Shown: one piece after another, positions 5,419 through 17,819 of the stretch | Numbering within the stretch: the first letter of the stretch is position 1 | How the letters are laid out: the number at the start of each line of letters is the position of its first letter | From: Planctomycetaceae bacterium | Lineage (GTDB): Bacteria; Planctomycetota; Planctomycetia; Pirellulales; DASRSE01 | Direction: 5' to 3' | DNA: 20,819 bases | NCBI GenBank assembly: GCA_043738845.1 | Contig: JAYUFG010000003.1 | Span: 1 to 20,819 of the forward strand | The notes under the pieces: model-generated | Seen by the model: only the letters and a program-made list of their open reading frames with translations | The model's database searches: none | Told to the model about the DNA's origin: nothing | Translations under genes and position numbers: made by a program

Positions 5419-6753
5419 CTAGATTTTTCCGGAACCAACGTCGTGTTCGACCTCTTGCAGGTCTTCCAGAGCCGGTTCGTGGCTCGGCAGAACGCTCGCA
5501 TCGAGTTGGCGATAGCGGCGTAATTCGGGCAGCAGTCGCGCGGCAACCGCCACGACGAAGATCGAGCAAAAACCACCACTGACGGCCGCAATCACAGGCG
5601 AGAACAACCAGGCGACCGCACCCGACTCGAAACTTCCTAGTTCGTTGGAGATCGTGATAAACATCCCATTGACGGCGGAGACTCGGCCCCGCATTTCGTT
5701 CGGCGTCAGCAATTGAACGAGCGTATGCCGCACGACGACACTGATGTTATCGAACGCACCGGCGAGAAATAACATCGCCAATGACAACGGAAAATAGGTC
5801 GAAAGGCCAAACACAATCGTCACGCCGCCGAATGCCGCAACGGCCCCCAGCAAGTTTCGGCCCGCGTGCTGCATCGGTGGGCGGCGAGAAAGTATGATCG
5901 ACATCACGAACGATCCAATCGCTGGAGCAGCCATCAGCCAGCCCAAGCCCGGCTTACCTACGAAGAGTACATCTTTCGCGTAATATGGCAACAACGAAAC
6001 CGCACCGCCAAACAAATAGGCGAACATGTCAAGACTCATCATCCCCAGGATCAGTCGATTCTCCCGCACGAATCGCACACCCGCCAGGAGACTTTCCCGC
6101 GTCATCGGCGTGTCGCTGGGTGCTTGCGTGTAATTGACTTGTGTCAGCAGTCCGAAATAGAGCGTGGCCACGGCGATATTGAAGTAAAAAATCAGCGTTG
6201 TTCCGCCGAGCCAAGCGATGAGCAAACCGGCTAAGGCTGGTCCCAACGACGACGCGAGATGAAACGCTCCCGCATTCCAAGTGATGGCGTTGGCAAAACG
6301 ATCACGGGGAACAAGTTGCGGCATGAGCGACGATTTGGCCGGTTGACCGAACGCACGGGCGATGGCCGTTACAAACAGGCACGAATAGATTCCGACCAAG
6401 GCCCAGGCGTCGTTTTGTATTTGGGTCGCAATCGAAAGGCCGAGTGCAGCGGTCGCGACGATGGTCAGCATGGCCATGATCACATGCTTGCGATTGACAC
6501 GATCTGCGACTTGTCCCGCCACAAGTGCCAGGAGGACGACCGGAATGACCTGAACCAGCCCGACCAAACTGACATGCAGCGTCGAACCGGTCCGATCATA
6601 GATCGTGGCCATAACGGCCGTGGTCTGCATCTGCATTCCGAACAGCGAGCAAAAATTTCCGGTCAGATACAGGCGAAAATCGCGAATTCGCATCGCCGCA
6701 TAAGGATCATGTTGTTCCGGCGGGAGATCGGCATTGGAACGGTCGTCGCTCAT
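5419..6753 (-). CDS. Major facilitator superfamily transporter (EntS/DHA-like)
   Basis: The 444-aa ORF has about 12 predicted hydrophobic helices. It has an MFS-like N-terminus (MRIRDFRLYLTGNF...) and a conserved loop GQVADRVNRK between TM2 and TM3. An alternative start is the internal Met at MRIRDF. Confidence 0.8.
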   Translation of the reverse strand: MSDDRSNADLPPEQHDPYAAMRIRDFRLYLTGNFCSLFGMQMQTTAVMATIYDRTGSTLHVSLVGLVQVIPVVLLALVAGQVADRVNRKHVIMAMLTIVATAALGLSIATQIQNDAWALVGIYSCLFVTAIARAFGQPAKSSLMPQLVPRDRFANAITWNAGAFHLASSLGPALAGLLIAWLGGTTLIFYFNIAVATLYFGLLTQVNYTQAPSDTPMTRESLLAGVRFVRENRLILGMMSLDMFAYLFGGAVSLLPYYAKDVLFVGKPGLGWLMAAPAIGSFVMSIILSRRPPMQHAGRNLLGAVAAFGGVTIVFGLSTYFPLSLAMLFLAGAFDNISVVVRHTLVQLLTPNEMRGRVSAVNGMFITISNELGSFESGAVAWLFSPVIAAVSGGFCSIFVVAVAARLLPELRRYRQLDASVLPSHEPALEDLQEVEHDVGSGKI

Positions 6754-6888: not shown

Positions 6889-7989
6889 TTACAACAGATT
6901 GACCACGCGGTCGGTGAGACCCTTGTCGCCCAACATGATGTTGAGCTTCGAGTTGGCTGCGATCTTTTCCAAAACTTCCAACTCCCGCAAACGCATGAGC
7001 GTTGGGTTGTCCTGGAGCAGCTTGGCCGTGTTGGCTTGGCTGCGGATGGCGGCCGTTTCCTCACGTCGAAAAATCAAGTTGGCCTCGGCCGCCTTCTTGG
7101 CCTCGGTCACCTTGTTCAACAGGTCCTTCATCTCGCCCGGCAAGATCACGTCGCGAATTCCCATCGCGAGCAGTTCCAGGCCGAGAGCTTTCGCTCGCGG
7201 TCGAACTGCTTCGGTCAGTTCGTTCGCAACGGCATCCTTGTCGCTCAAGAATGAATCAAGTTCGCGCGATCCGACGATGGCCCGCAACGCCAATTGGGCA
7301 TCGCGGTACAACGCCTGACGAACATTCTCGACCGTGCTGACCGCCTGTCGCGCGTCGATCACGCGAAACGTGACAACGGCATTCATGCGGAGCGTGACCT
7401 TGTCGAGGGTCATAATGTCCTGACCCACAACATCGAAGTTCGCCTCGCGCAGGTCTTCCTGAACGAACTTGACTTGCGCCACGTTCTTCCAGAAAGCGTA
7501 TCGTCCTGGCGGCAGCGTTTCGATAAACCGGCCGTCGATGAACAACACTCCTTCGTGATGCGGTTCGACCGTCGCAATTTCCAACACTTGGTCGGCCATT
7601 TGCGAACGAGCGATCACGGTCAGTTCCTGATGCACGAAACGAGCGGCTCGCGCGTCCACGATCTCCACCCGCACCTTGCGGTGCGTGTTCCAGTACGCAA
7701 AGCGTCCCGGCGGCAAGATGTGGCTGAACCGACCTTCGATCCAGACGAGTGCCCGCTCGTGGTCCTTCAGGTCGATGACCTCGGCACGACCCTGCAACCT
7801 GCCCGACTTGATCATCACGTCAAGCTGTTCGTGAACGAGCCACGGGTTACGTTGTGAGACAATCTCGACCTGCACCTTTCCGAACGGGTCGAAGAACCGG
7901 TGCTTACCCGGCTCGAGCAATCCGACGAACTCGCGTTCGCGGAAGTACAGGCCGATTTCGTAGCTGCGGATTTGAATGCGCTGGAACAT
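6889..7989 (-). CDS. SPFH/band-7 (slipin-like) protein. The N-terminal SPFH beta-segment is triplicated in tandem.
   Basis: The C-terminal part matches a band-7/stomatin-like domain plus coiled-coil tail (RVIDARQAVSTVENV, ELLAMGIRDVILPGEMK, EAKKAAEANLIFRREETAA). The N-terminal ~190 aa consist of three ~60-65 aa repeats of consensus h-F/W-I-D/E-GRF-x-x-LPPGR-Y/F-A-F/Y-W. Each resembles the first strands of an SPFH domain. Confidence 0.8.
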   Translation of the reverse strand: MFQRIQIRSYEIGLYFREREFVGLLEPGKHRFFDPFGKVQVEIVSQRNPWLVHEQLDVMIKSGRLQGRAEVIDLKDHERALVWIEGRFSHILPPGRFAYWNTHRKVRVEIVDARAARFVHQELTVIARSQMADQVLEIATVEPHHEGVLFIDGRFIETLPPGRYAFWKNVAQVKFVQEDLREANFDVVGQDIMTLDKVTLRMNAVVTFRVIDARQAVSTVENVRQALYRDAQLALRAIVGSRELDSFLSDKDAVANELTEAVRPRAKALGLELLAMGIRDVILPGEMKDLLNKVTEAKKAAEANLIFRREETAAIRSQANTAKLLQDNPTLMRLRELEVLEKIAANSKLNIMLGDKGLTDRVVNLL

Positions 7990-8011
7990 GGAAGGAAACG
8001 GGGGAAATGAG

Positions 8012-8043
8012 GAACGATGAATGATGAATGATGAATGATGAAT
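8012..8043. repeat. Tandem heptamer repeat (GAATGAT), about 4.5 copies
   Basis: Read directly from the sequence: gaacgat gaatgat gaatgat gaatgat gaat. It lies 23 bp upstream of the ATG of the minus-strand SPFH gene, inside an AT-rich intergenic stretch. Confidence 0.8.
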
Positions 8044-8115
8044 TTAATACAAAAAGTCAGAATGCAAAACGCAAAACTAATGCGAAGACAAATCGACATG
8101 CCGTATTTACCAAGC

Positions 8116-8131
8116 CGACGACTTGTCGTCG
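8116..8131. promoter_or_regulatory. Perfect 6-bp inverted repeat CGACGA-cttg-TCGTCG in the SPFH upstream region. It is a possible operator.
   Basis: The palindrome is seen in the sequence at 8116..8131. It sits in the AT-rich region upstream of the minus-strand SPFH gene. Its function is inferred only. Confidence 0.25.
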
Positions 8132-8532
8132 ATAGTGTTTGCGATGCGTCGCTTGTTCTCTGTTGAATGTTGATTGTTCAATGCTCACTGTTTAAAAAGG
8201 CCGTTGGAGTTGGGTTGCAACGCTCAGTCCCCTGTTGCTCGGCGGAGTTTTGTGTTCACGACTGCGGCGAAAAAGCTTCTTCCAGCGGTCGTTGACGTGT
8301 TGTGAAAAACCAAGGCTCCTCACAGACACGTCCCTTTCGCCGGGGTTCACTTTCTGTTCACAATCGCGGAATAACGCACTGCATAGCCTGCGAACATGTT
8401 GCGTCGCGAGATTTTGTTCGGTGGCGACTTTCGCCGCCCCGCGCATCGTCTTCGCAAACGCCGACTTTACGACAACCCAGCTCCTTCGGCGACAGGTTGG
8501 ACGCTTTCGCGCGCGGAGGGTTTCCAAGACCC

Positions 8533-8609
8533 TTTGCGGTACAGGATTCGAACCTGTGACAGCCAGATTAGTAGTCTGGTGCTCTATCCGTTGAGCTAAC
8601 CACTCGCAA
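8533..8609 (-). tRNA. tRNA-like gene (Arg-type D-arm, anticodon ACU) with an interrupted acceptor stem. It may be a pseudogene or an atypical tRNA.
   Basis: The minus-strand sequence has a canonical D-arm (UAGCUCAACGGAUAGAGC, A20 present) and T-arm (ACAGG-UUCGAAU-CCUGU). The anticodon stem-loop is CCAGA-CUACUAA-UCUGG, giving anticodon ACU (plus-strand 8570..8572). The variable loop is 5 nt. The 3' acceptor strand is ACCGCAA followed by A73, with no encoded CCA. The 5' strand reads UUGCG-AGUG-GU, that is, the exact complement UUGCGGU interrupted by 4 nt. Depending on register, either the two terminal or the two basal acceptor pairs are mismatched. Confidence 0.5.
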
Positions 8610-8774
8610 TTCGCCGCCAGTTTTGAACCCGTACACGGAACACCGCAAGCCAATCGTATTCACGAGGTCACAGTGCCGCCGGCCGACGACGAACAGCATT
8701 GGTTAGAGAGGACAATGGTGAGGCGAAGAAGTTCGCTGTGACCGGTGGGGAATCTCGGCTCAGATGTAAAACAG

Positions 8775-8806
8775 GTGACGCGTCACATTGGTCCGCACAG
8801 CGGACC
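8775..8806. promoter_or_regulatory. Two adjacent palindromes about 230 bp upstream of the 9031 gene: GTGACGCGTCAC and GGTCCGC-aca-GCGGACC
   Basis: A perfect 12-bp palindrome lies at 8775..8786 and a 7-bp-stem hairpin at 8790..8806. Both are seen directly in the sequence. Their function is unknown. Confidence 0.2.
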
Positions 8807-9030
8807 CTACGGTTTCAATTCATTCCCAAACGCTCACCACTGGCCACACGGACTTCCAATCGTTTGCGGCGAACTTGGCTGGGCGAGGTGGTTCTGGCCC
8901 CAAAAAATAGTTGGGGTGGAATCTGTGCGGACGGGAATAATTTGGCGGCAAGGGAGCGATTCTACGCACATGGCGAGTGACTTTGGACGCTCGACCCGGA
9001 CTGCCCATTGTTTCGCGAGGAGTTGCTGTC

Positions 9031-10635
9031 ATGGAGATGCACGATTCGGCCTTGCCGTCGGTGGTCGATGATCTTGGGCTGTCACCGCTGGCACATGTTA
9101 AACATTGGCTGCGGTATGAGGCGGCTTGGTTTTTGGCCAGCCTGACGGGCCATGTGGTGGTGCTGCTGGTCGTTCTATTGGTTCTGAGTAATTTCGGGAC
9201 GCGAAAACAGGACGAGACATTTCCGCCGGAAGAATTCGATGCAGCGATGATCGAGCCGAAAGACAATTCGGACACGTTGGTTCACATCGACGCAACCATC
9301 ATTCCATCAACGCCGGAGCCGCCACCGCCTGCGACCGATATTACGCAGTACGATCCGCCGCCGTCGATTGGTGGGGAATCGGAGTCGAATGAAACGTCGC
9401 CTAATGCCGGTGGCCGACGTGGAAAAGAAGGTGTCCTTGTCCCCGGCACAACCGGCGAACGACAGGAGGTGTCCATTGGATGTTGGGGCAATAACGATCC
9501 GTATCGATTCGGCAAGGGTAATGGACCAACTGGCCCATTGGCCGGAACGCCCTTACGTCAGCGTGGTACGCCCAGGCCGGGAACGGGAATCACCCCGCAA
9601 TCCGAACGCTCCGTCGCCGCTGCCCTGTATTGGATCAGCCGGCATCAACTGCCCGACGGACATTGGAGCCTCAGCGAGTTCGACAAAAAGTGTACCGACA
9701 AGACCTGCACAGGCCACGGAGAGTCGGAAACCGACGCGGGTGCGACGGGACTTGGACTGCTTCCGTTCCTGGCGGCGGGCTGCACAAGCGAGAAAAAAGG
9801 ACCGTATCAAGAGAACGTCGGTCGCGGAGTCTATTGGCTGGTCTCGCATCAGAATCCGAAGGATGGCGATTTGGCGGTCGGCTCGAAAGGAAACGCCCAC
9901 ATGTACGCTCATGCGATTGCCACTATCGCGCTGTGCGAAGCGTATGCGATGTCGCCGCGTGAAAAAGAAACCGGCCGCGCGGCGCAAGCGGCCATCAATT
10001 TCATTGTCGCGGCACAAAATGCCGGGACGGGTGGTTGGCGTTATGAACCGGGACAAGATGGCGATACGTCGGTCGTCGGGTGGCAGGTCATGGCTCTTAA
10101 GAGTGCCCAAATGGCGTATCTGAATGTCCCTAAGTCGGCTTTCGACGGAGCCGATAAATGGTTGAAGTCGTGTTCGTCCGGAAACTATGGCGAACAGTTT
10201 TCATATCAGCCGGGTGGCGGTGCAACGCCGACGATGTCCTCGGTCGGATTGCTTTGTAGCCAGTATTTGCACCTGCGAAAAGATGATCCGAAACTGCAAG
10301 GAGGTCTCGACTACTTGCTGAAGCATCTGCCCAACAACGGAGAACGGGACATCTATTACTGGTACTATGCGACGCAGGTCATGCACAACGTTCCAGGCCA
10401 ACAATGGGACGAATGGAATCGGGCGATGCGAAAAATTTTGACGGAATCACAAGTTCGCGAAGGGTGTGCGGCGGGAAGCTGGGATCCTGCCCGGCCGAGC
10501 AATGATCGCTGGGGTCCGGCGGGAGGGCGGCTGATGGTGACGTGCCTGTCGTGCTTGACCCTGGAGGTTTATTACCGCTATTTGCCGCTGTTTCAGCTTG
10601 ATCAGGAGGAGCGCAACCGCTCGGAGGCGAAGTGA
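9031..10635 (+). CDS. Membrane-anchored protein with an alpha-alpha-toroid domain built from prenyltransferase/squalene-oxidase (QW-like) repeats. The ORF opens at 8977; the Met at 9031 is the likely start.
   Basis: One TM helix (AAWFLASLTGHVVVLLVVLLVLSNF) is followed by a Pro-rich linker (STPEPPPPATDITQYDPPPS). Repeated Q/H-x-x-DG-x-W-type motifs follow: YWISRHQLPDGHWS, YWLVSHQNPKDGDL, VAAQNAGTGGWRYEP, LLKHLPNNGERD. These are typical of terpene-cyclase/prenyltransferase beta-subunit-like repeats. Confidence 0.7.
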   Translation: MEMHDSALPSVVDDLGLSPLAHVKHWLRYEAAWFLASLTGHVVVLLVVLLVLSNFGTRKQDETFPPEEFDAAMIEPKDNSDTLVHIDATIIPSTPEPPPPATDITQYDPPPSIGGESESNETSPNAGGRRGKEGVLVPGTTGERQEVSIGCWGNNDPYRFGKGNGPTGPLAGTPLRQRGTPRPGTGITPQSERSVAAALYWISRHQLPDGHWSLSEFDKKCTDKTCTGHGESETDAGATGLGLLPFLAAGCTSEKKGPYQENVGRGVYWLVSHQNPKDGDLAVGSKGNAHMYAHAIATIALCEAYAMSPREKETGRAAQAAINFIVAAQNAGTGGWRYEPGQDGDTSVVGWQVMALKSAQMAYLNVPKSAFDGADKWLKSCSSGNYGEQFSYQPGGGATPTMSSVGLLCSQYLHLRKDDPKLQGGLDYLLKHLPNNGERDIYYWYYATQVMHNVPGQQWDEWNRAMRKILTESQVREGCAAGSWDPARPSNDRWGPAGGRLMVTCLSCLTLEVYYRYLPLFQLDQEERNRSEAK

Positions 10636-10726
10636 GCGTGTATTCCAGGGGTTGCAACGGCCGCAGCTTTGGAGGAAATTAAGGGGAGCGTCATCACTCT
10701 CGTTCGGACTTCTATTTCGCTTCTGG

Positions 10727-13654
10727 ATGTCTATGCTCCGCCTACGTGTCAGCGCAATTTTACTGGTGATTTGTTGGCTTTCTTCGTTGGCCCCGGCTGC
10801 GGACCAAGTCGTCGATTTTGTCCACGCCCTGCAAGAGGCGGGCTACGGCGACACGGCCGTCGAGTACATGCAGCAGTTGGAAAAGCAGCAGCGCATCCCG
10901 GAGGAACTCAAGGATACGTGGGATTTGGAATTTTACAACTCGTATGAAGCTCGAGCGAGGAATGCTTTTGGCGAGAAAGAAGCGACGGCCTCTAAAGTCG
11001 AATCGAAGAAGTACCTCGACAAGTTTCTCAAAGAGCATCCGAACCATCCCGATGTCGCCAAAGCCGTCTTAGGCTCGGCACTGGCTGCGCAGCGGCGAGG
11101 ACTTGCACTGCTCGCGTCGGCCAAGATCAATCCCAATAAGGAGCAAGCAGGTAACGACACGGCGGAAGCGCGGGCCGCGTTTGAGGAAGCCAAGCCCCGC
11201 TTTCAACAGGCCCTTGAGCGGTTTAAGAAAAAACTTGATGGGCTGAAAGTCCCCGGGAAAAATGCCAAGAAAAGGGAAACCGACGAGTATGAAACAGCGG
11301 TTAGCAACTTCATTGAAACCCGCTTTCAGGTTTCACTCACCGACGTTTACATCGCCCGCACAATGGCGGATCGAAAGGATCCTATTCGCGTGAAGTTGCT
11401 GCAAGGTGCCGCGAAGGAATTCGACTCGATCTTTCAGAAAAACCGCGAAAACATTTACGGTTTGGCCGCCCACATGTGGAACGGCAAAGTCGAAGAGGAA
11501 CAAGGCAACGTCGATAAAGCCGTAGACATCTACGACGAAGTGGCCAGTTATGGCCCGAACCTGAATGAACTTAAGCCCGACGCGCCGATTGATCCGCTCT
11601 TTGCGGAACTGCATCTGGCTCGCTTGCAACTGCTGTTGAAACAGAAGAAGTTTGACGACTTCGATACCGAAGCTAAGACTTGGCTCGACGCCTACAAGAA
11701 AAGCCGTAAGAACGTCGTGCAGAATTTCTATCAGGGAATCCAGCTTGAGTACGTCAAGTTCGCAATTGTTGCCGTCGAAAAAGCCACGGGCAAGAACAAG
11801 CTCCGCTATGAAAATGATATTACAACGATGCTCAAGGACATGGTCAAAATCCGCAGCGACTATCAGCTTGAGGCATTGCAGATATTCAAAGGTCGCAATA
11901 AATCGGCCGGGCAGGATCCGAAAACAATGGAAGAAGCTTTGGCCCTGGGGGATAATTCTCTACGCACTAAGGATTGGGCCGACGCGGAAAAAATGTTCGT
12001 TTTAGCACTGTCCTTGGCTCCTAAGAATGCTCCGCCTGCCACCCTGACAGAAGTTAAGGGCAAGCTGGCCTTTGTGCGATTCAACATTGCCCGCGAATTG
12101 TATACAGAAAAAAAATATGCGCAATCACTCGAAATTGCGGAAAAGGTAGCGGTCGATCCCGACGCGGGGGACGTTGGCTCGGTGTCCTCGGCGATGAGTG
12201 TGCAAGCGGCGTTTGGTTTGTATCTCGAGGCCCATAATGCTGAGAAGCCGGACAAAGAAGCGGAAGCGACCCATCTGGCCCGTATGAACAAGAACGCCGA
12301 AACGACCATTGCCAAATGGCCCGGCAAGCCGGAGGCCGACGATTCCCGCATGTTGCTCGCGCAGGCGTATCTGGTGATGGGCAAACTGGACGAGGCGGTT
12401 AAGGCTTATGACGGGGTGAACATCAAGTCCGAAAAATACGCTGCCGCCAAACACAGTGCGGGCCGGACGTTGTGGTATCGCTATGTACAGGAAAAACAAA
12501 AGTCGGAGAGTGATCGAAATCAAGAACAAATGATCGCCGACCGGAAGAAGGGGGTCGAACTCTTGCTGGCCAGTTTCGCGGCTCAACAAAAAGCCAAGGA
12601 GCCGGGGAAGCCCTTCCCGAAAGCACTGCTCGATACGCAACTGCTCCTGGGCGAGATCGAACTCGAAGGGAACCAACCCGACAAGTCGGTGCAGTACTTA
12701 CAGTCCCTGGTTGATGTCCTCTCGACGGAAAAGTCTGACCAATTTGACTCGGCCGTCACACTCCGCGTTTTTACCGCTGCCGTGCGGGCCTACTCGGCCA
12801 AGAATGATTTGGCCAAGGCGGGCGAAGTCGGTTTGAAGATGATCGAAATGGGACCGGACACGCCGCAAGTGAATAATGTCCTCATGGAGTTCGCGAAACT
12901 CCTCGACTTAGAACGCAAAAAAGCCGTTGCCGACGTCACCACGAAACCGTCTGCTCAGTCGGAGAAAAAACTCGCCGACACCAATAAAATGCTGGGGACA
13001 ATCCTCAGTAAACTCATGGAACGCAAGCAGCTTTCGGCCGTGAGCTTGCTGCTGATTGCCGAAACATTCGCGAACATTGGCGATCTGGATCGGGCCAATC
13101 AACAATATTCATCCCTCTTGAACATCATCGAGAAAGAACCCAACTCGGAAAACGGCAAAGCCTTAGCTAAGGCTGAGGTGCGAATTCTTACCAATCAAAT
13201 TGACCTGAAACGCAATAGCGGCGATTTCGACGGCGCAAGAGAGAGTGCCAAAGCCATCATCGCCAAAAACCCCAACGCGCTGGAACCACGTTTACTTGAG
13301 TGTCGTATTCTGCAAGACAAAGCGGAAAAATCCAACGACGCAGCCGACTTCAATGCAGCGGCGACCAGTTGGGCCCAACTGCGAGCGAAGTTAGGTACGA
13401 AACGTTCGCCCGAGTATTATGAGGTTCTCTACAACTCAGCGAATTGTCTCGTCTTTGAGGCTGAACAATTGAAGGCCAAGAAAAAAGAAGATTCCGCTGC
13501 CAAGGCCCTGTTGGCGGAAAAAATGCTCAATTCCGTCTTGGCGACGGGGGCCGCCTCCGCTGGTCCCGACGTGGTTGCAAAGTACAAAGAACTCGCTGCG
13601 AAAGCGGCCCTCCTTCAAGGTCGTAAAGAGACTCCCAAGGAATCGCCCAAATAG
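10727..13654 (+). CDS. Large secreted Lys/Ala/Glu-rich alpha-helical (TPR-like) repeat protein of unknown function. The ORF opens at 10598; the Met at 10727 gives a signal peptide.
   Basis: The N-terminus MSMLRLRVSAILLVICWLSSLAPAAD is signal-peptide-like. The remaining ~950 aa have low complexity dominated by A, K, E and L, with recurrent helical hairpin-like segments. There are no catalytic motifs. The codon usage is clean and no competing ORFs are present. Confidence 0.65.
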   Translation: MSMLRLRVSAILLVICWLSSLAPAADQVVDFVHALQEAGYGDTAVEYMQQLEKQQRIPEELKDTWDLEFYNSYEARARNAFGEKEATASKVESKKYLDKFLKEHPNHPDVAKAVLGSALAAQRRGLALLASAKINPNKEQAGNDTAEARAAFEEAKPRFQQALERFKKKLDGLKVPGKNAKKRETDEYETAVSNFIETRFQVSLTDVYIARTMADRKDPIRVKLLQGAAKEFDSIFQKNRENIYGLAAHMWNGKVEEEQGNVDKAVDIYDEVASYGPNLNELKPDAPIDPLFAELHLARLQLLLKQKKFDDFDTEAKTWLDAYKKSRKNVVQNFYQGIQLEYVKFAIVAVEKATGKNKLRYENDITTMLKDMVKIRSDYQLEALQIFKGRNKSAGQDPKTMEEALALGDNSLRTKDWADAEKMFVLALSLAPKNAPPATLTEVKGKLAFVRFNIARELYTEKKYAQSLEIAEKVAVDPDAGDVGSVSSAMSVQAAFGLYLEAHNAEKPDKEAEATHLARMNKNAETTIAKWPGKPEADDSRMLLAQAYLVMGKLDEAVKAYDGVNIKSEKYAAAKHSAGRTLWYRYVQEKQKSESDRNQEQMIADRKKGVELLLASFAAQQKAKEPGKPFPKALLDTQLLLGEIELEGNQPDKSVQYLQSLVDVLSTEKSDQFDSAVTLRVFTAAVRAYSAKNDLAKAGEVGLKMIEMGPDTPQVNNVLMEFAKLLDLERKKAVADVTTKPSAQSEKKLADTNKMLGTILSKLMERKQLSAVSLLLIAETFANIGDLDRANQQYSSLLNIIEKEPNSENGKALAKAEVRILTNQIDLKRNSGDFDGARESAKAIIAKNPNALEPRLLECRILQDKAEKSNDAADFNAAATSWAQLRAKLGTKRSPEYYEVLYNSANCLVFEAEQLKAKKKEDSAAKALLAEKMLNSVLATGAASAGPDVVAKYKELAAKAALLQGRKETPKESPK

Positions 13655-13798
13655 TCGTTGACCCTTTCGTCCAAGCAGGTGTGAGAATTCAAGCGGATTG
13701 TACCGCCGACTCGACGGGGCGATTTCCAGACCGTAAACTAAGACGATCTTTCGGTCTCGACGTCGGGACTAATTTGTCGGTTCTTCAAGCGGCGGTAT

Positions 13799-15820
13799 AT
13801 GGTCGAGTTCGGGCGGTTGGCGGCGGCACACCACAAAGCACAGCGCGACCTCCTCGCCGCAGCGGATGCGCACGGCCATTGGATCGGCGAGTTGGCGAGT
13901 TCCGCCCTCTCCACCGCGACGGCCGTCAGCGCACTGTCACTCGCCGCGCGACATGCCAAACCCGACGGTTCAACACGCTGGGGGACGCCCGATGGTCGCC
14001 AGCAACTCAACGATCTGATCTTGGCGGGAATGCGTTGGTTGGCCGAACATGTGAATCCCGACGGCGGCTGGGGTGATACCGATCTCAGCACGTCGAACAT
14101 TGCAACGACGATGCTCGTCCGGGCGGCTTTTCATTTGACGGCGGTTCCCGCCAAACACGCCGACCTTCTCACGCGAGCGGCTGAGTACACGCAAGCTCAG
14201 GGAGAGATCGCAGGGCTTCGCAAGCGATATGGCAAAGACAAGACGTTCGCCGTGCCGATTTTGACGAACTGCGCCTTGGCGGGCATGGTCCCTTGGCGAG
14301 ACGTCTCGGCGTTGCCGTTTGAACTGGCTTGTTTGCCGCGTGGGTTTTTTAAGTTCCTGCGGCTGCCGGTTGTGAGCTATGCAATTCCCGCCCTCGTGGC
14401 GATTGGCCAATGTCGATTTTATCATCGACCGCCAATGAACCCGCTTATTCGTTGGATGCGTCGGCGGTCGATTGCTAAAAGCCTGCGCGTATTGAAAGAG
14501 ATGCAGCCCGACAGTGGCGGATATTTAGAGGCGACGCCGCTGACCAGTTTCGTCGTGATGAGTTTGGCAAGCATGAATCTCGTGGAAAACCCCGTGACCC
14601 TGAGCGGCCTTGATTTTTTGGTCGCGTCGGTGCGACCCGATGGAAGTTGGCCGATTGATACGAACTTGGCGACCTGGAACACGACGTTGGCGTTGAATGC
14701 ACTCGATTGTGATGTTGCGGGCGAGACCGCTGAAGCTGTGGGCAACGATAAGTCTGCGGCCTGGTACGCGAACTGTCTCGATTGGGTTGGGTCGTGTCAA
14801 CACCGGGTCGAGCATCCCTTCACGGGAGCGGCACCGGGCGGATGGGGCTGGAGCGATTTGAGTGGTGCCGTTCCCGACGCCGACGACACGGCCAGTGCGC
14901 TGCTCGCATTGGCAAAGTGGAGGGGCGTTGTGAAAACGGATAAAAACGCAACGGCAAAAAGTTCCTTCTCCGCTCGGGCCGCGATTCAATGGCTGCTCGA
15001 TTTGCAAAATCGCGATGGAGGTTGGCCGACGTTTTGTCGGGGCTGGGGGGCGTTGCCGTTTGATCGCAGTGCGGCCGATTTGACCGCCCATGCGATGCGG
15101 GCGATGTGGGCGTGGCGGGATGATTCGCTTCCGGTCGATCCGGCGTTTCAAATTCCGCGAGTAGACGAGGTTACACTTCGATCACTTCAACGATCCGCGA
15201 TTGAGCGTGGCTTTGCCTATCTGGAAAAAAAGCAACGGGCGGATGGAAGTTGGGTTCCCTTGTGGTTCGGCAATCAGCATGATCCGCAGGAAGAAAATCC
15301 GGTTTATGGAACGGCTCGCGTATTGCTGGCCTATCGCGATCTACAGCGGCTGGATGGGGTGACGGCGAAGCGGGGAATCGCTTGGCTCGTGGAACATCAA
15401 AACGCCGACGGCGGTTGGGGCGGCGGACCAAAGTTGCAACCGGCAATTTCAATAATGGCATCGCCCAAAAACGGACAGGCCTCACCGGACGAATCGAAGT
15501 CGCGTCGCATCCAGGCGGAAAAAGTCGAACCAGCGGTCGTTTCGAGCATTGAGGAGACAGCTTTGGCTCTCGAAACCTTGGCCTCGCTGGGGCCGCAGTA
15601 CGTGCCGCAAACCGTTGTGGAAAAAGGACTTGAATGGCTTGTCTCGGCGGTTGAGGGGCATCGCCACCGTGATTGCTCGCCCATCGGTTTCTACTTTGCC
15701 AAGTTGTGGTATTATGAGAGACTGTATCCTTTGACGTTTACGGTGGCCGCCCTGGGAGCCGCCGTGACCCGACTTCGCCCACCAACAAGTTCCCAGCCAA
15801 CCCCGGTCCAGCACGTATAG
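13799..15820 (+). CDS. shc: Squalene-hopene cyclase
   Basis: The protonating DxDDTA motif is present (VPDADDTASALLAL). Multiple QW repeats are present (LQNRDGGW, KKQRADGSW, EHQNADGGWG). The N-terminal region is HGHWIGEL...ALSLAA. At 673 aa the length is typical for SHC. A ~20-aa insertion follows the last GGWG relative to characterised SHCs. Confidence 0.9.
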   Translation: MVEFGRLAAAHHKAQRDLLAAADAHGHWIGELASSALSTATAVSALSLAARHAKPDGSTRWGTPDGRQQLNDLILAGMRWLAEHVNPDGGWGDTDLSTSNIATTMLVRAAFHLTAVPAKHADLLTRAAEYTQAQGEIAGLRKRYGKDKTFAVPILTNCALAGMVPWRDVSALPFELACLPRGFFKFLRLPVVSYAIPALVAIGQCRFYHRPPMNPLIRWMRRRSIAKSLRVLKEMQPDSGGYLEATPLTSFVVMSLASMNLVENPVTLSGLDFLVASVRPDGSWPIDTNLATWNTTLALNALDCDVAGETAEAVGNDKSAAWYANCLDWVGSCQHRVEHPFTGAAPGGWGWSDLSGAVPDADDTASALLALAKWRGVVKTDKNATAKSSFSARAAIQWLLDLQNRDGGWPTFCRGWGALPFDRSAADLTAHAMRAMWAWRDDSLPVDPAFQIPRVDEVTLRSLQRSAIERGFAYLEKKQRADGSWVPLWFGNQHDPQEENPVYGTARVLLAYRDLQRLDGVTAKRGIAWLVEHQNADGGWGGGPKLQPAISIMASPKNGQASPDESKSRRIQAEKVEPAVVSSIEETALALETLASLGPQYVPQTVVEKGLEWLVSAVEGHRHRDCSPIGFYFAKLWYYERLYPLTFTVAALGAAVTRLRPPTSSQPTPVQHV

Positions 15821-15953
15821 TTTTCGCGTGAGCGAAAACGACCCATTTTCCGTTGAGCGTTGTTAAATGAGAACCGTCTGAGCGCGCGAACGGGGCTAAG
15901 AACTGGCCAGCCCCGCGTTCAGCGTCACGAGCAAATCCAACCAGAGGCACACC

Positions 15954-17819
15954 TTGGCGACTGCAATCACGGAATCAAATCTGGACCAAGGGTCGGAGAT
16001 TTCCGCCCCCGTCGAGAAATCGAAACGCCGCAAGACGAGCCACTTGAAGGACGTCCCGCAAAGCCGCGCAATGCGAGAATCGCTCCGCGCAAAATGTGCG
16101 GAAGTCACGGCCAAACTCGACAAGTCTCGCCCACTCGGCAAAGACGAAATGGAAGTGGTCGCCCGCTCGATCCTGGCGGAAACGAATCAGCCAGAGGGTT
16201 ATCTCGGTTGGATCATGGTGATCTTGGCTTCGGAGTTTTGGCGGGATCAGGTGGCGGCCGCGCCTCCGTCGCGTCGGTTGCTGTTGTTGCCCCATTGTTT
16301 GAAACATGCGGAAGGTTGTCCCGCCGATTACGACGAGTTTGGACTGGACTGTCGTCAATGCGGGGCCTGTAGCATCGCCGATTTCCGCTCGATTGCCGAG
16401 GACATGGGCTACAAGGTACTCGTCGCCGAAGGCTCGCCGATTGTCTTGAAAATAATTATCAGTGGCTACGTCGATGCGATTGTCGGCGTGGCCTGTTTGA
16501 ACGTCTTGGAAAAGGCCATCGACAAAATTCTCCTGGCGGGAATTCCCTGCATGGCCGTCCCACTCCTGTCGAGCGACTGCCGCAACACGTCGGTCGATGA
16601 AGATTGGGTCGATCAAATGGTGCGGCTCGAACAAAAGGCGGCCGCCGTGGAGACGACAAGTTACGTTCACCTCATGCGGGAAGCGGCCAGTCTGTTTGAA
16701 CGCAAAAAACTCGAACGGATCGTCCCCCGACTTCGCGGCGGGCCAAGTCTGGCCGAGGCCAACGGTCACGGCGTGGGCGGTCTCGATCCGGTCGCTGGCA
16801 CGGAGGCTATCGCTTACGACTTTCTCGCCAAGGGGGGCAAGCACTCCCGTCCTTTTATCACGCTCGCCGTTTATGATGCTCTGACGGGTGGAAACGCCAC
16901 GAGTTTCGGCGGTGCGGCCCATTTAACCAGCTTGCCCGATGCGATCAAGCGTGTGGCGATGTCGATTGAGACGTTTCATAAAGCGTCGCTCGTTCACGAC
17001 GACATTGAAGACGACGACCCATTTCGTTATGGCGAGCCGACCTTGCACAAGACTTACGGTCTCTCGACGGCGATCAACGTCGGCGATTATTTGATTGGGA
17101 TGGGTTATCGCTTGGTCAGTCGCGAAATGAAAACGCTGGGAGCCGAAGTCGTCGCCGATATTTTGGACCGCTTGGCCGACGCCCACATGAAATTGTCTGA
17201 AGGACAAGGTGCCGAGTTGCTCTGGCGAGATTCGCGAGAAAAATCGCTCAAGCCGATTGACGCTTTGAAAATTTATGCCTTGAAAACCGCTCCCGCATTT
17301 GAAGCGGCGTTGTACTGCGGAGCGAGACTGGCGGGGAGCGTCGAAAAATACAGCAAACCCATCAGCCAATTTGCCCAACACCTGGGCGTTGCTTTTCAAA
17401 TTCTCAACGATCTCAAAGATTGGGACGGAGATAATCACAACAAGCTCACGGCGGGCGGAGACTTGGTCGGCGGACGGCCCACCGTGCTGTGGGCCTTAGC
17501 GTTGGAAGGTCTGTCGGCCGAAAATCGCCAAGAACTGGAAACGCTGTCGCAATTGAAACCGTTGTCGCCTGCCAATTTGCAAAACATTCGCCGCTTATAC
17601 GAACAGGCGGGCGTGTTTGAAAAGGCGGCGCGACTGGTCGATAAATATCGCGAGCGTGCCGAAGCGGTCGCCGATTCGCTTGAGCCAGAGGAGTTGCGTC
17701 GCTTATTTTACTACTTGATTGATACCGTCTTAGAGCAGCATGAAACGGCCGTCGTCCCGAAGATTGAACCGATTCCGTTGACGAAATTCGTGCCACTGAA
17801 ATCCGTTCCCACGTCGTAA
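15954..17819 (+). CDS. Fusion protein: an N-terminal Cys-rich DUF116-like domain plus a C-terminal trans-polyprenyl diphosphate synthase domain with a non-canonical second Asp-rich motif
   Basis: The N-terminal ~230 aa carry a Cys cluster (LPHCLKHAEGCPADYDEFGLDCRQCGACSI) and IISGYVDAIVGVAC, which resemble DUF116. The C-terminal ~330 aa have the first Asp-rich motif LVHDDIEDDD with small residues (A, S) at positions -5/-4, a GQ motif (LSEGQGAELL), KTAPAFEAALYCGARLAG, and a second motif FQILNDLKDWDGD. That second motif is NDxxD rather than the canonical DDxxD. Confidence 0.8.
   Translation: MATAITESNLDQGSEISAPVEKSKRRKTSHLKDVPQSRAMRESLRAKCAEVTAKLDKSRPLGKDEMEVVARSILAETNQPEGYLGWIMVILASEFWRDQVAAAPPSRRLLLLPHCLKHAEGCPADYDEFGLDCRQCGACSIADFRSIAEDMGYKVLVAEGSPIVLKIIISGYVDAIVGVACLNVLEKAIDKILLAGIPCMAVPLLSSDCRNTSVDEDWVDQMVRLEQKAAAVETTSYVHLMREAASLFERKKLERIVPRLRGGPSLAEANGHGVGGLDPVAGTEAIAYDFLAKGGKHSRPFITLAVYDALTGGNATSFGGAAHLTSLPDAIKRVAMSIETFHKASLVHDDIEDDDPFRYGEPTLHKTYGLSTAINVGDYLIGMGYRLVSREMKTLGAEVVADILDRLADAHMKLSEGQGAELLWRDSREKSLKPIDALKIYALKTAPAFEAALYCGARLAGSVEKYSKPISQFAQHLGVAFQILNDLKDWDGDNHNKLTAGGDLVGGRPTVLWALALEGLSAENRQELETLSQLKPLSPANLQNIRRLYEQAGVFEKAARLVDKYRERAEAVADSLEPEELRRLFYYLIDTVLEQHETAVVPKIEPIPLTKFVPLKSVPTS

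Follow-up and report, generated by a model that had tools for sequence, protein, structure and literature searches.

In the abstract of their 2016 study, Burroughs and Aravind reportedly assign to 'SPFH/Band-7 modules' and to 'a novel tRNA-like molecule' a role as scaffolding cofactors in RNA repair. In some bacteria, RtcB is encoded beside a Band-7 protein and a predicted non-coding RNA (ncRNA) termed b7a-tRNA (Wang et al., bioRxiv 10.1101/312249). The passages of this preprint that deal with the molecule call it strongly tRNA-like, citing Burroughs and Aravind (2016), and consider it apparently interchangeable with YrlA, a Y RNA of tRNA-like structure, functional redundancy of both having been proposed; b7a-tRNA was experimentally unvalidated as of that work (10.1101/312249). 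The prediction of 2016 presented the class as the RNA counterpart of Band-7 scaffolds in RNA-repair systems, in parallel to Ro and its Y RNA. We became interested in a tRNA-like element contained in a 20,819-nt stretch of DNA from a Planctomycetaceae bacterium (metagenome contig JAYUFG010000003.1 of the Pirellulales, phylum Planctomycetota, positions 1 to 20,819), which in its full length is referred to as the window, and find that the element forms the centre of a structured RNA (about 490 nt) that is encoded upstream of the gene for a slipin, a Band-7 (SPFH) protein. Since it resembles a tRNA and adjoins a Band-7 gene, and since RtcB is encountered in the genomic context of its family, we have filed the element as a putative member of the computationally predicted b7a-tRNA class, following the class description in the quoted passages of 10.1101/312249.

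The features ascribed to b7a-tRNA, namely an ncRNA resembling tRNA, an adjacent Band-7 gene and a nearby RtcB gene in some bacteria, are all seen in the family described here, the RtcB gene being taken as a matter of context and not as a requirement. The family differs in the absence of RtcB and RtcA from the window and in the location of the tRNA mimic between covarying 5' and 3' domains of an RNA of ~490 nt; as a further point, the mimic closes giant tRNA arrays in Pirellulales. A second related system is YrlA, the Y RNA bound by Rsr/Ro60 and encoded in rsr-yrlBA-rtcBA operons, which equally is a non-decoding tRNA mimic that keeps the elbow formed by the D- and T-loops and the Levitt pair, and which is encoded beside a ring- or cage-forming scaffold protein and RtcB/RtcA. 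In contrast to our element, which exhibits a 5-bp anticodon stem and a 7-nt loop, the module of YrlA is closed by the Ro-binding stem and contains no ordinary anticodon hairpin. Moreover, the partner is here a Band-7 protein instead of Ro, and the Y-RNA models of Rfam found no match. We consider it probable that the element is a mimic of the b7a-tRNA type residing in a slipin-linked structured RNA, which would serve as partner or regulator of a Band-7 protein in an Rtc-type damage response.

The element folds into a cloverleaf at 8605..8533 on the minus strand and is the single tRNA-like gene of the window. ARAGORN labels it as tRNA-Ser with the anticodon ACT, and the Rfam tRNA model RF00005 matches with 52.8 bits (E = 5.5e-09) compared to a gathering score of 29, although the alignment only covers model positions 3-68. 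An earlier note on this DNA had placed a tRNA-like element at 8533-8609 and proposed a check by Infernal with the Rfam tRNA model; the coordinates are confirmed, the match is significant, ARAGORN agrees on the anticodon, and the minus strand, absent from that note, can be added. On this strand, the element reads GAGUGGU UA GCUC AACGGAUA GAGC A CCAGA CUACUAA UCUGG CUGUC ACAGG UUCGAAU CCUGU ACCGCAA A, and it contains the D and T arms, the short variable loop, the anticodon loop CUACUAA and the nucleotides A20 and C35 that had been recognized before. The variable loop comprises 5 nt and does not form a class II arm as found for Ser, and CCA is not encoded. In the canonical register, the acceptor consists of five pairs (3-70 to 7-66, with one U-G) and two terminal mismatches (G1/A72 and A2/A71). 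The previous description of a split acceptor, with UUGCG (8609-8605), AGUG (8604-8601) and GU (8600-8599) facing ACCGCAA, is correct, and the '4-nt insertion' and the canonical register with five pairs are alternative descriptions of identical bases. Conversely, the proposed Arg-type body could not be sustained, as the element is 60-70% identical to many tRNAs of related genomes (including those for Ile, Lys, Cys, Glu, Val and others) without preference for Arg. Arg ancestry was rejected, since pairwise identity to true array tRNAs favours no Arg, and the Arg identity nucleotides A20 and C35, although present in the window copy, are not conserved among homologues.

Conservation of the module (8533..8605, minus strand) was analyzed in alignment A2, which contains 61 copies in 77 columns. 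Pairing amounts to 100% in the D stem, 99.7% in the anticodon stem and 100% in the T stem, with 17 out of 21 pairs showing changes on both sides and with 167 such cells compared to 45 expected, a value that is not reached in any of 500 shuffles. The Levitt pair between positions 15 and 48 covaries as well, appearing as G-C in 37, A-U in 11 and U-A in 3 copies (0/500 shuffles), and U8, A14, G46 and the bases of the T-loop are invariant or nearly so. The conserved and covarying D, anticodon and T stems, the elbow and the Levitt pair thus reflect an L-shaped tRNA fold under selection, and the element keeps the L-shaped body of a tRNA, including D arm, anticodon stem, T arm, elbow and the 15-48 pair. 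In the region corresponding to the anticodon (positions 34-36), 20 different triplets are found among 57 seven-nucleotide loops; U33 is retained in 30 of these loops and C32, a purine at position 37 and A38 are mostly retained. At the outer end of the acceptor, 38-49 of the 61 copies lack pairing at 1-72, 2-71 and 3-70, and in 57 copies there are only 3-5 contiguous acceptor pairs, with Myxococcota constituting an exception, where a near-complete acceptor is followed by ACCA or ACCG. Because the triplet evolves freely and the acceptor is cut to 3-5 pairs, charging of the element or decoding by it is, as judged from the aligned copies, very unlikely. Elements of this kind, which ARAGORN labels as tRNA-Ser, -His, -Leu and others, should not be counted as such in genome annotation. 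We have also considered a role of the loop as 'specifier' in cis and rejected it, as complements of the anticodon loop (4- to 7-mers) are not enriched in its own flanks relative to loops permuted among loci (p = 0.24-0.98).

The association of the element with slipin is evident in a protein-based scan restricted to one genome per species, which returned 80 slipin loci whose proteins are 36-78% identical to the protein in the window. In the first related loci, the last tRNA-like unit before slipin is the same element, with the loops CCAUGAA, AUUAAAAC and CUUUGCA taking the place of CUACUAA in the window. Searches with an nhmmer profile of the element identified a homologue 260-680 nt upstream of slipin and on the same strand in 57 of the 80 loci. 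With a covariance model, L049 and L081 were recovered in addition, which increases the number to about 59 species-level genomes. The remaining loci mostly lack upstream sequence, while others encode distant slipins (48-52% identity) from other phyla. Carriers are distributed among Pirellulales, Gemmataceae, Thermoguttaceae and other Planctomycetota, Acidobacteriota, Myxococcota (Archangium, Myxococcus), Hydrogenedentes and Riflebacteria, and include the cultured strains Adhaeretor mobilis HG15A2 (L021), Blastopirellula marina DSM 3645 (L040) and Bythopirellula polymerisocia Pla144 (L026), which allow tests of expression, processing and slipin binding. In the reverse direction, a search of metagenomes with the RNA pattern returned 120 loci. 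This search was permissive and about 100 of the loci contained genuine tRNA-Val genes, which were filtered out, leaving 23 copies of the element with slipin located 424-600 nt downstream in 17 out of 17 cases that contain enough downstream DNA. The sole pattern match with ample downstream DNA that breaks the linkage is L089. In total, the same architecture is found in more than 75 independent assemblies. In the window, the slipin gene begins 543 nt downstream of the element on the same strand and the pair of RNA and slipin is still kept next to an unrelated, divergent upstream neighbour, a prenyltransferase-like gene.

Sequence conservation extends beyond the module in blocks reaching from about 80 nt upstream to a U-run located approximately 100-200 nt before the start codon of slipin. 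In the lineage of the window, these blocks define a structured RNA of ~490 nt (8684..8194, minus strand), which contains the tRNA mimic as central module and which is organized into a 5' hairpin, the mimic, two small hairpins and a 3' domain of about 300 nt that is closed by a long-range GC helix and followed by the U-run. All parts of the RNA described in the following are located on the minus strand. The 5' hairpin domain (GGCCGGCGGCAC ... GUGUUCCGUGUACGGGUUC, 8625..8684) is conserved across phyla and covaries; RNAalifold predicts an irregular hairpin from 39 sequences, with 89.6% of cells paired and 79 cells changed on both sides (0/500 shuffles). Directly following the module, hairpin H1 (AGGGU CUUGGAA ACCCU, 8517..8533) is found in the minimum free energy (MFE) fold of the single sequence, and homologues have at its position a hairpin that varies in sequence and often carries a GNRA-type loop, such as GCGAGU-GCAA-ACUCGC in L002. 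It is succeeded by hairpin H2 with a GAAA tetraloop (GCGCGC GAAA GCGUC, 8500..8514), which coincides with a block CG.GAAAGCG that is conserved in many homologues.

The 3' domain, as predicted by RNAalifold from 41 downstream regions, spans about 300 nt, in which the closing helix P1 encloses the inner helices P2-P5. In this alignment, pairing extends to 91.6% of cells and changes on both sides are seen for 30 of 35 pairs, with none of 500 shuffles reaching the observed value. The 5' strand of P1 (GCCGAAGGAGCUG, 8478..8490) is supported by covariation and by the MFE fold of the single sequence; in alignment A3, columns 97-110 pair with columns 589-603 at about 91-93% with compensatory changes. 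The most conserved core of the domain (GGCUAUGCAGUGCGUUAUUCCGCG, 8365..8388; family consensus GCC.UG.AGUGCG.GGAUACCGC) is part of the covarying helices P4 and P5 and occurs also in copies from Acidobacteriota and Riflebacteria. A conserved ACUCCGC block (8241..8249) provides the 3' partner of the core helices, with A3 columns 544-559 pairing with columns 317-332 at 93-96%. The covarying 3' strand of P1 (CAACUCCAACGGC, 8194..8212) leads into a U-run, which by eye is found in roughly two thirds of the A3 sequences, and both together likely constitute the 3' end of the RNA or an attenuator. Folded on its own, the RNA of the window has a z-score of -2.9, and its fold includes H1 and P1 in addition to the D, anticodon and T arms. 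In the unconserved spacer just upstream of the slipin start, the window contains a 7-nt tandem repeat, AATGATG, in 5.4 copies (8006-8043).

Several other identities for this RNA were considered. A reading as protein-coding sequence, including an open reading frame of 153 aa (8192..8653, minus strand), was rejected, as the covariation and the variable-length inserts inside helices argue for an RNA; the longest open frames in 37 homologous regions range from 52 to 174 codons, which is uninformative in DNA rich in G+C. A hammerhead ribozyme, suggested by the conserved upstream block CUGACGAAGG, was equally dismissed, since its core varies (CUAACGA and CUGCAGA in homologues, CAAAACU in the window) and no ribozyme of Rfam matches. 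In Rfam 15, no family other than tRNA has a match in the window or in the loci L002, L005 and L006. Specifically, GOLLD and ROOL did not match at E-values up to 10 in the region 7850-8950 of the window or up to 1 in three related loci, and membership in the GOLLD, ROOL, Y RNA, tmRNA and T-box families was rejected, as none of them matched.

Certain features of the RNA recall systems of known organization. Like GOLLD and ROOL, it is a large multi-domain bacterial RNA found near tRNA islands or arrays, and the 5' and 3' regions of GOLLD, which sometimes carry tRNAs in their linker, resemble the succession of 5' domain, tRNA-like module and 3' domain observed here at the end of arrays. Unlike both, it is only about 0.5 kb in length, it is tied to one protein family instead of prophages and its embedded tRNA does not decode. 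The tRNA 'L-arrays' described in 2021 (PMC8421152) are matched by orthologous Pirellulales loci, in which 30-40 co-oriented tRNA genes surround an HNH gene and are in places accompanied by RtcB; that paper mentions no terminal tRNA mimic, no Band-7 gene and no structured RNA, and the window is devoid of an array. Modules with the shape of a tRNA that are part of longer RNAs and serve as recognition handles rather than decoders are also known from mascRNA/MALAT1 and from viral tRNA-like structures. These are of eukaryotic or viral origin and their intact acceptor ends, which are degenerate in our case, undergo cleavage by RNase P or aminoacylation. Literature searches for tRNA-like RNAs in conjunction with SPFH, slipin or Planctomycetes returned nothing relevant, whereas the combination of RtcB and Band-7 led to b7a-tRNA. 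The extended ~490-nt architecture, the position at the terminus of tRNA arrays and the vault-like build of the partner protein may be new. The current analysis adds a testable anatomy to the predicted class, namely a defined RNA whose helices covary, whose elbow is conserved and whose anticodon is free, together with a probable 3' end.

The slipin encoded downstream of the RNA (6889..7989, minus strand) is a protein of 366 aa containing a Pfam Band_7 domain (E = 9e-25), which profile searches identify as a homologue of stomatin (E = 1e-29). Its AlphaFold2 model (mean confidence score pLDDT of 84) consists of three N-terminal repeats of five β-strands each, the SPFH domain and a long helix, without a membrane segment. 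In Foldseek searches with this model, stomatin is the best match over approximately 230 columns, while among solved structures only chains of the major vault protein span about 400 columns including the repeats, with E-values of about 4e-10 and low TM-scores. A Pfam scan of the slipin detected no vault repeat, and we regard the full-length match of the predicted structure to the major vault protein as a lead and not as demonstration of homology. PADLOC made no anti-phage defence call for the slipin or its neighbours.

With respect to the genomic surroundings, many Pirellulales have 30-40 co-oriented tRNA genes in an array that contains a gene for an HNH endonuclease and that ends with the element. 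In the window and at many other loci, the element is kept without an upstream array and its constant partner is thus the slipin. Clustering of neighbours revealed slipin, HNH, RtcB and RtcA as recurrent families and no Ro-like cluster. RtcB (RNA ligase) and/or RtcA (RNA 3'-phosphate cyclase) are immediate neighbours of slipin in about 12 of the homologous loci. These come from several phyla, including Planctomycetota (L006, L013, L020, L030, L180 and L208, with RtcB being the Rtc gene in the latter two), Acidobacteriota (L052 and L055), Riflebacteria (L060), a Desulfocapsa bin (L051) and L041.

Based on these neighbourhoods and on the precedent of Ro and Y RNA, we propose that the RNA might be the cognate partner of the Band-7 scaffold or its regulator and that both might act in an Rtc-type response to damage of RNA or tRNA. 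By analogy to Ro and YrlA, the conserved elbow and body of the mimic would offer a handle for factors that recognize tRNA, and the RNA could function either as ribonucleoprotein cofactor in trans or as attenuator of slipin in cis. Excision of a tRNA-sized piece appears plausible in Myxococcota and unlikely in Planctomycetota. Several observations weigh against the proposal that the element is a b7a-tRNA-type mimic involved in RNA repair. Its assignment to the class is made at the level of class descriptions and is provisional. Neither RtcB nor RtcA was found in the 20.8-kb window, and since most homologous loci lack both genes inside the fetched flanks, the link to RNA repair rests on a minority of loci. 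P1 and the U-run right before slipin would fit a cis attenuator equally well as an independent RNA gene. Finally, the relatedness of sequences can inflate shuffle controls, although slide controls were nonetheless clean for the stems of the module, the 3' domain and the 5' hairpin. Going considerably further, b7a-tRNA could, instead of being a stand-alone gene of tRNA size, be the middle module of an undescribed ornate RNA of ~0.5 kb that ends L-arrays and that would be part of a bacterial vault-like ribonucleoprotein, where the soluble Band-7 protein would resemble a miniature major vault protein with three β-repeats, SPFH shoulder and cap helix, and where the exposed and freely varying anticodon loop would act as bait or sensor for anticodon nucleases and would feed Rtc repair. 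We view this extension as speculative and rather doubtful.

Among the alternatives, one concerns the mode of action only. In this case, the 490-nt RNA would be the 5' leader of the slipin mRNA, with P1 and the U-run terminating transcription and a factor bound to the tRNA-shaped module deciding on read-through into slipin and, where present, rtcBA. Such a role is suggested by the location of the RNA, which always directly precedes slipin on its strand, by the GC-rich P1, which leads into a U-run in about two thirds of the sequences, and by the outcome of a promoter search in the window, which detected none of the sigma-70 type between RNA and slipin. However, the U-run is missing after P1 in about one third of the family, a long spacer that lacks conservation separates the RNA from the start codon (encompassing 200 nt with a simple repeat in the window), a terminator stem built around ~270 nt would be unusual, and the pairs Ro/Y-RNA and OLE/OapA provide precedents for gene-adjacent RNAs that can be partners acting in trans. 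We find a cis-acting leader unlikely, while acknowledging that it overlaps with the preferred explanation in the identity of the element. An even lower probability is attributed to the possibility that the fold is kept solely as processing signal, at which cuts by RNase P and RNase Z would part the transcript of an upstream tRNA array from the RNA or mRNA that follows, comparable to the release of mascRNA from MALAT1. Although many Pirellulales elements end an array of 30-40 genes and the Myxococcota copies retain a near-complete acceptor with subsequent ACCA or ACCG, the Planctomycetota keep only 3-5 acceptor pairs with positions 1-3 mostly unpaired and would therefore be poor substrates of RNase P. 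In addition, the window and many other loci keep the element without an upstream array, and the anticodon stem, the length of the 7-nt loop and the Levitt pair are conserved despite being unneeded for mere cleavage.

The explanations that had been raised from the single sequence carry hardly any weight once homologues are compared. A functional missense or ambiguous decoder, being an Arg- or Ser-accepting tRNA that reads AGU or AGY through the anticodon ACU (or ICU), would agree with U33, C35, U36, A37 and A20 of the window copy, which are compatible with the identity rules of arginyl-tRNA synthetase. Yet, the 1-72 and 2-71 pairs are mismatched, CCA is not encoded, a class II arm for Ser is absent and the body is not Arg-like. 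Moreover, orthologues at the same locus carry AUG, GUG, AAG, UUA, GAU, UUU, AUC, CAU and other triplets, with U33 missing in 27 of 57 loops, and the triplet already differs in the nearest relatives (73-78% slipin identity). An Arg-identity tRNA(ACU) decoding the Ser codon AGU would have implied deliberate Ser-to-Arg mistranslation, a tempting misreading that is excluded by the comparative data and refuted at the level of the family. Similarly negligible is the likelihood of a decaying tRNA-Arg pseudogene or an assembly artefact, both of which had been invoked to account for the broken acceptor stem and the unusual anticodon of one sequence. The architecture is found in the large set of independent assemblies described above and shows compensatory changes not only in three stems but also at one tertiary pair. 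The shortened acceptor is a family-wide property, which refutes an artefact, and neutral decay would not retain 99.7-100% pairing at a divergence where the neighbouring protein has dropped to 36-78% identity, which refutes a pseudogene and instead signifies strong purifying selection on the cloverleaf across several phyla. The caution expressed in the earlier note with respect to the acceptor was thus justified and its third candidate, a non-canonical tRNA-like RNA, was correct in kind.

Certain loci display additional peculiarities. The tRNA arrays, located about 1-7 kb upstream of slipin, are largely conserved in their order (L007, L012, L018, L021, L026, L043, L047, L062 and others) and, according to ARAGORN, contain unusual isoacceptors, such as Arg(GCG) in most arrays, Gly(ACC) in L018, L037, L062 and L086 and Pro(AGG) in L063. 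L018 and L047 are two contigs of the same metagenome-assembled genome (MFD00082.bin.2.49), each with a near-identical tRNA array, RNA and slipin, indicating that the whole unit was duplicated within a genome. One or two extra tRNA-like units or T-arms directly precede the element in L045 (about 7470-7540), L061 (7363-7520), L052, L055 and L069; the extra unit of L045 combines a full 7-bp acceptor stem with a 5-nt anticodon loop. In the planctomycetotal locus L064, the best match of the covariance model (7655-7726) is located on the strand opposite to slipin. The phage-like IMG/VR contig of L089 harbours a related tRNA-like sequence with a defective anticodon loop (6354-6428, minus strand) among three DUF6353 paralogues and no slipin, and about 83 of the metagenome loci L090-L209 contain a tRNA-Val(GAC) with the anticodon loop UCGACAA, where C replaces U at position 33. 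Just downstream of slipin in L005, a planctomycete contig of 6.9 Mb, a sub-threshold match to the group I intron family RF00028 was detected (7246-7577, minus strand; 45 compared to 50 bits, E = 1.8e-08). In the window itself, an exact look-up of the divergent 552-aa neighbour protein returned no match, and the region 8977-17819 on the plus strand encodes squalene-hopene-cyclase-like and prenyltransferase-like proteins, a large TPR protein and a fusion of DUF116 with a polyprenyl synthetase, which the gene caller splits into two genes in L001.

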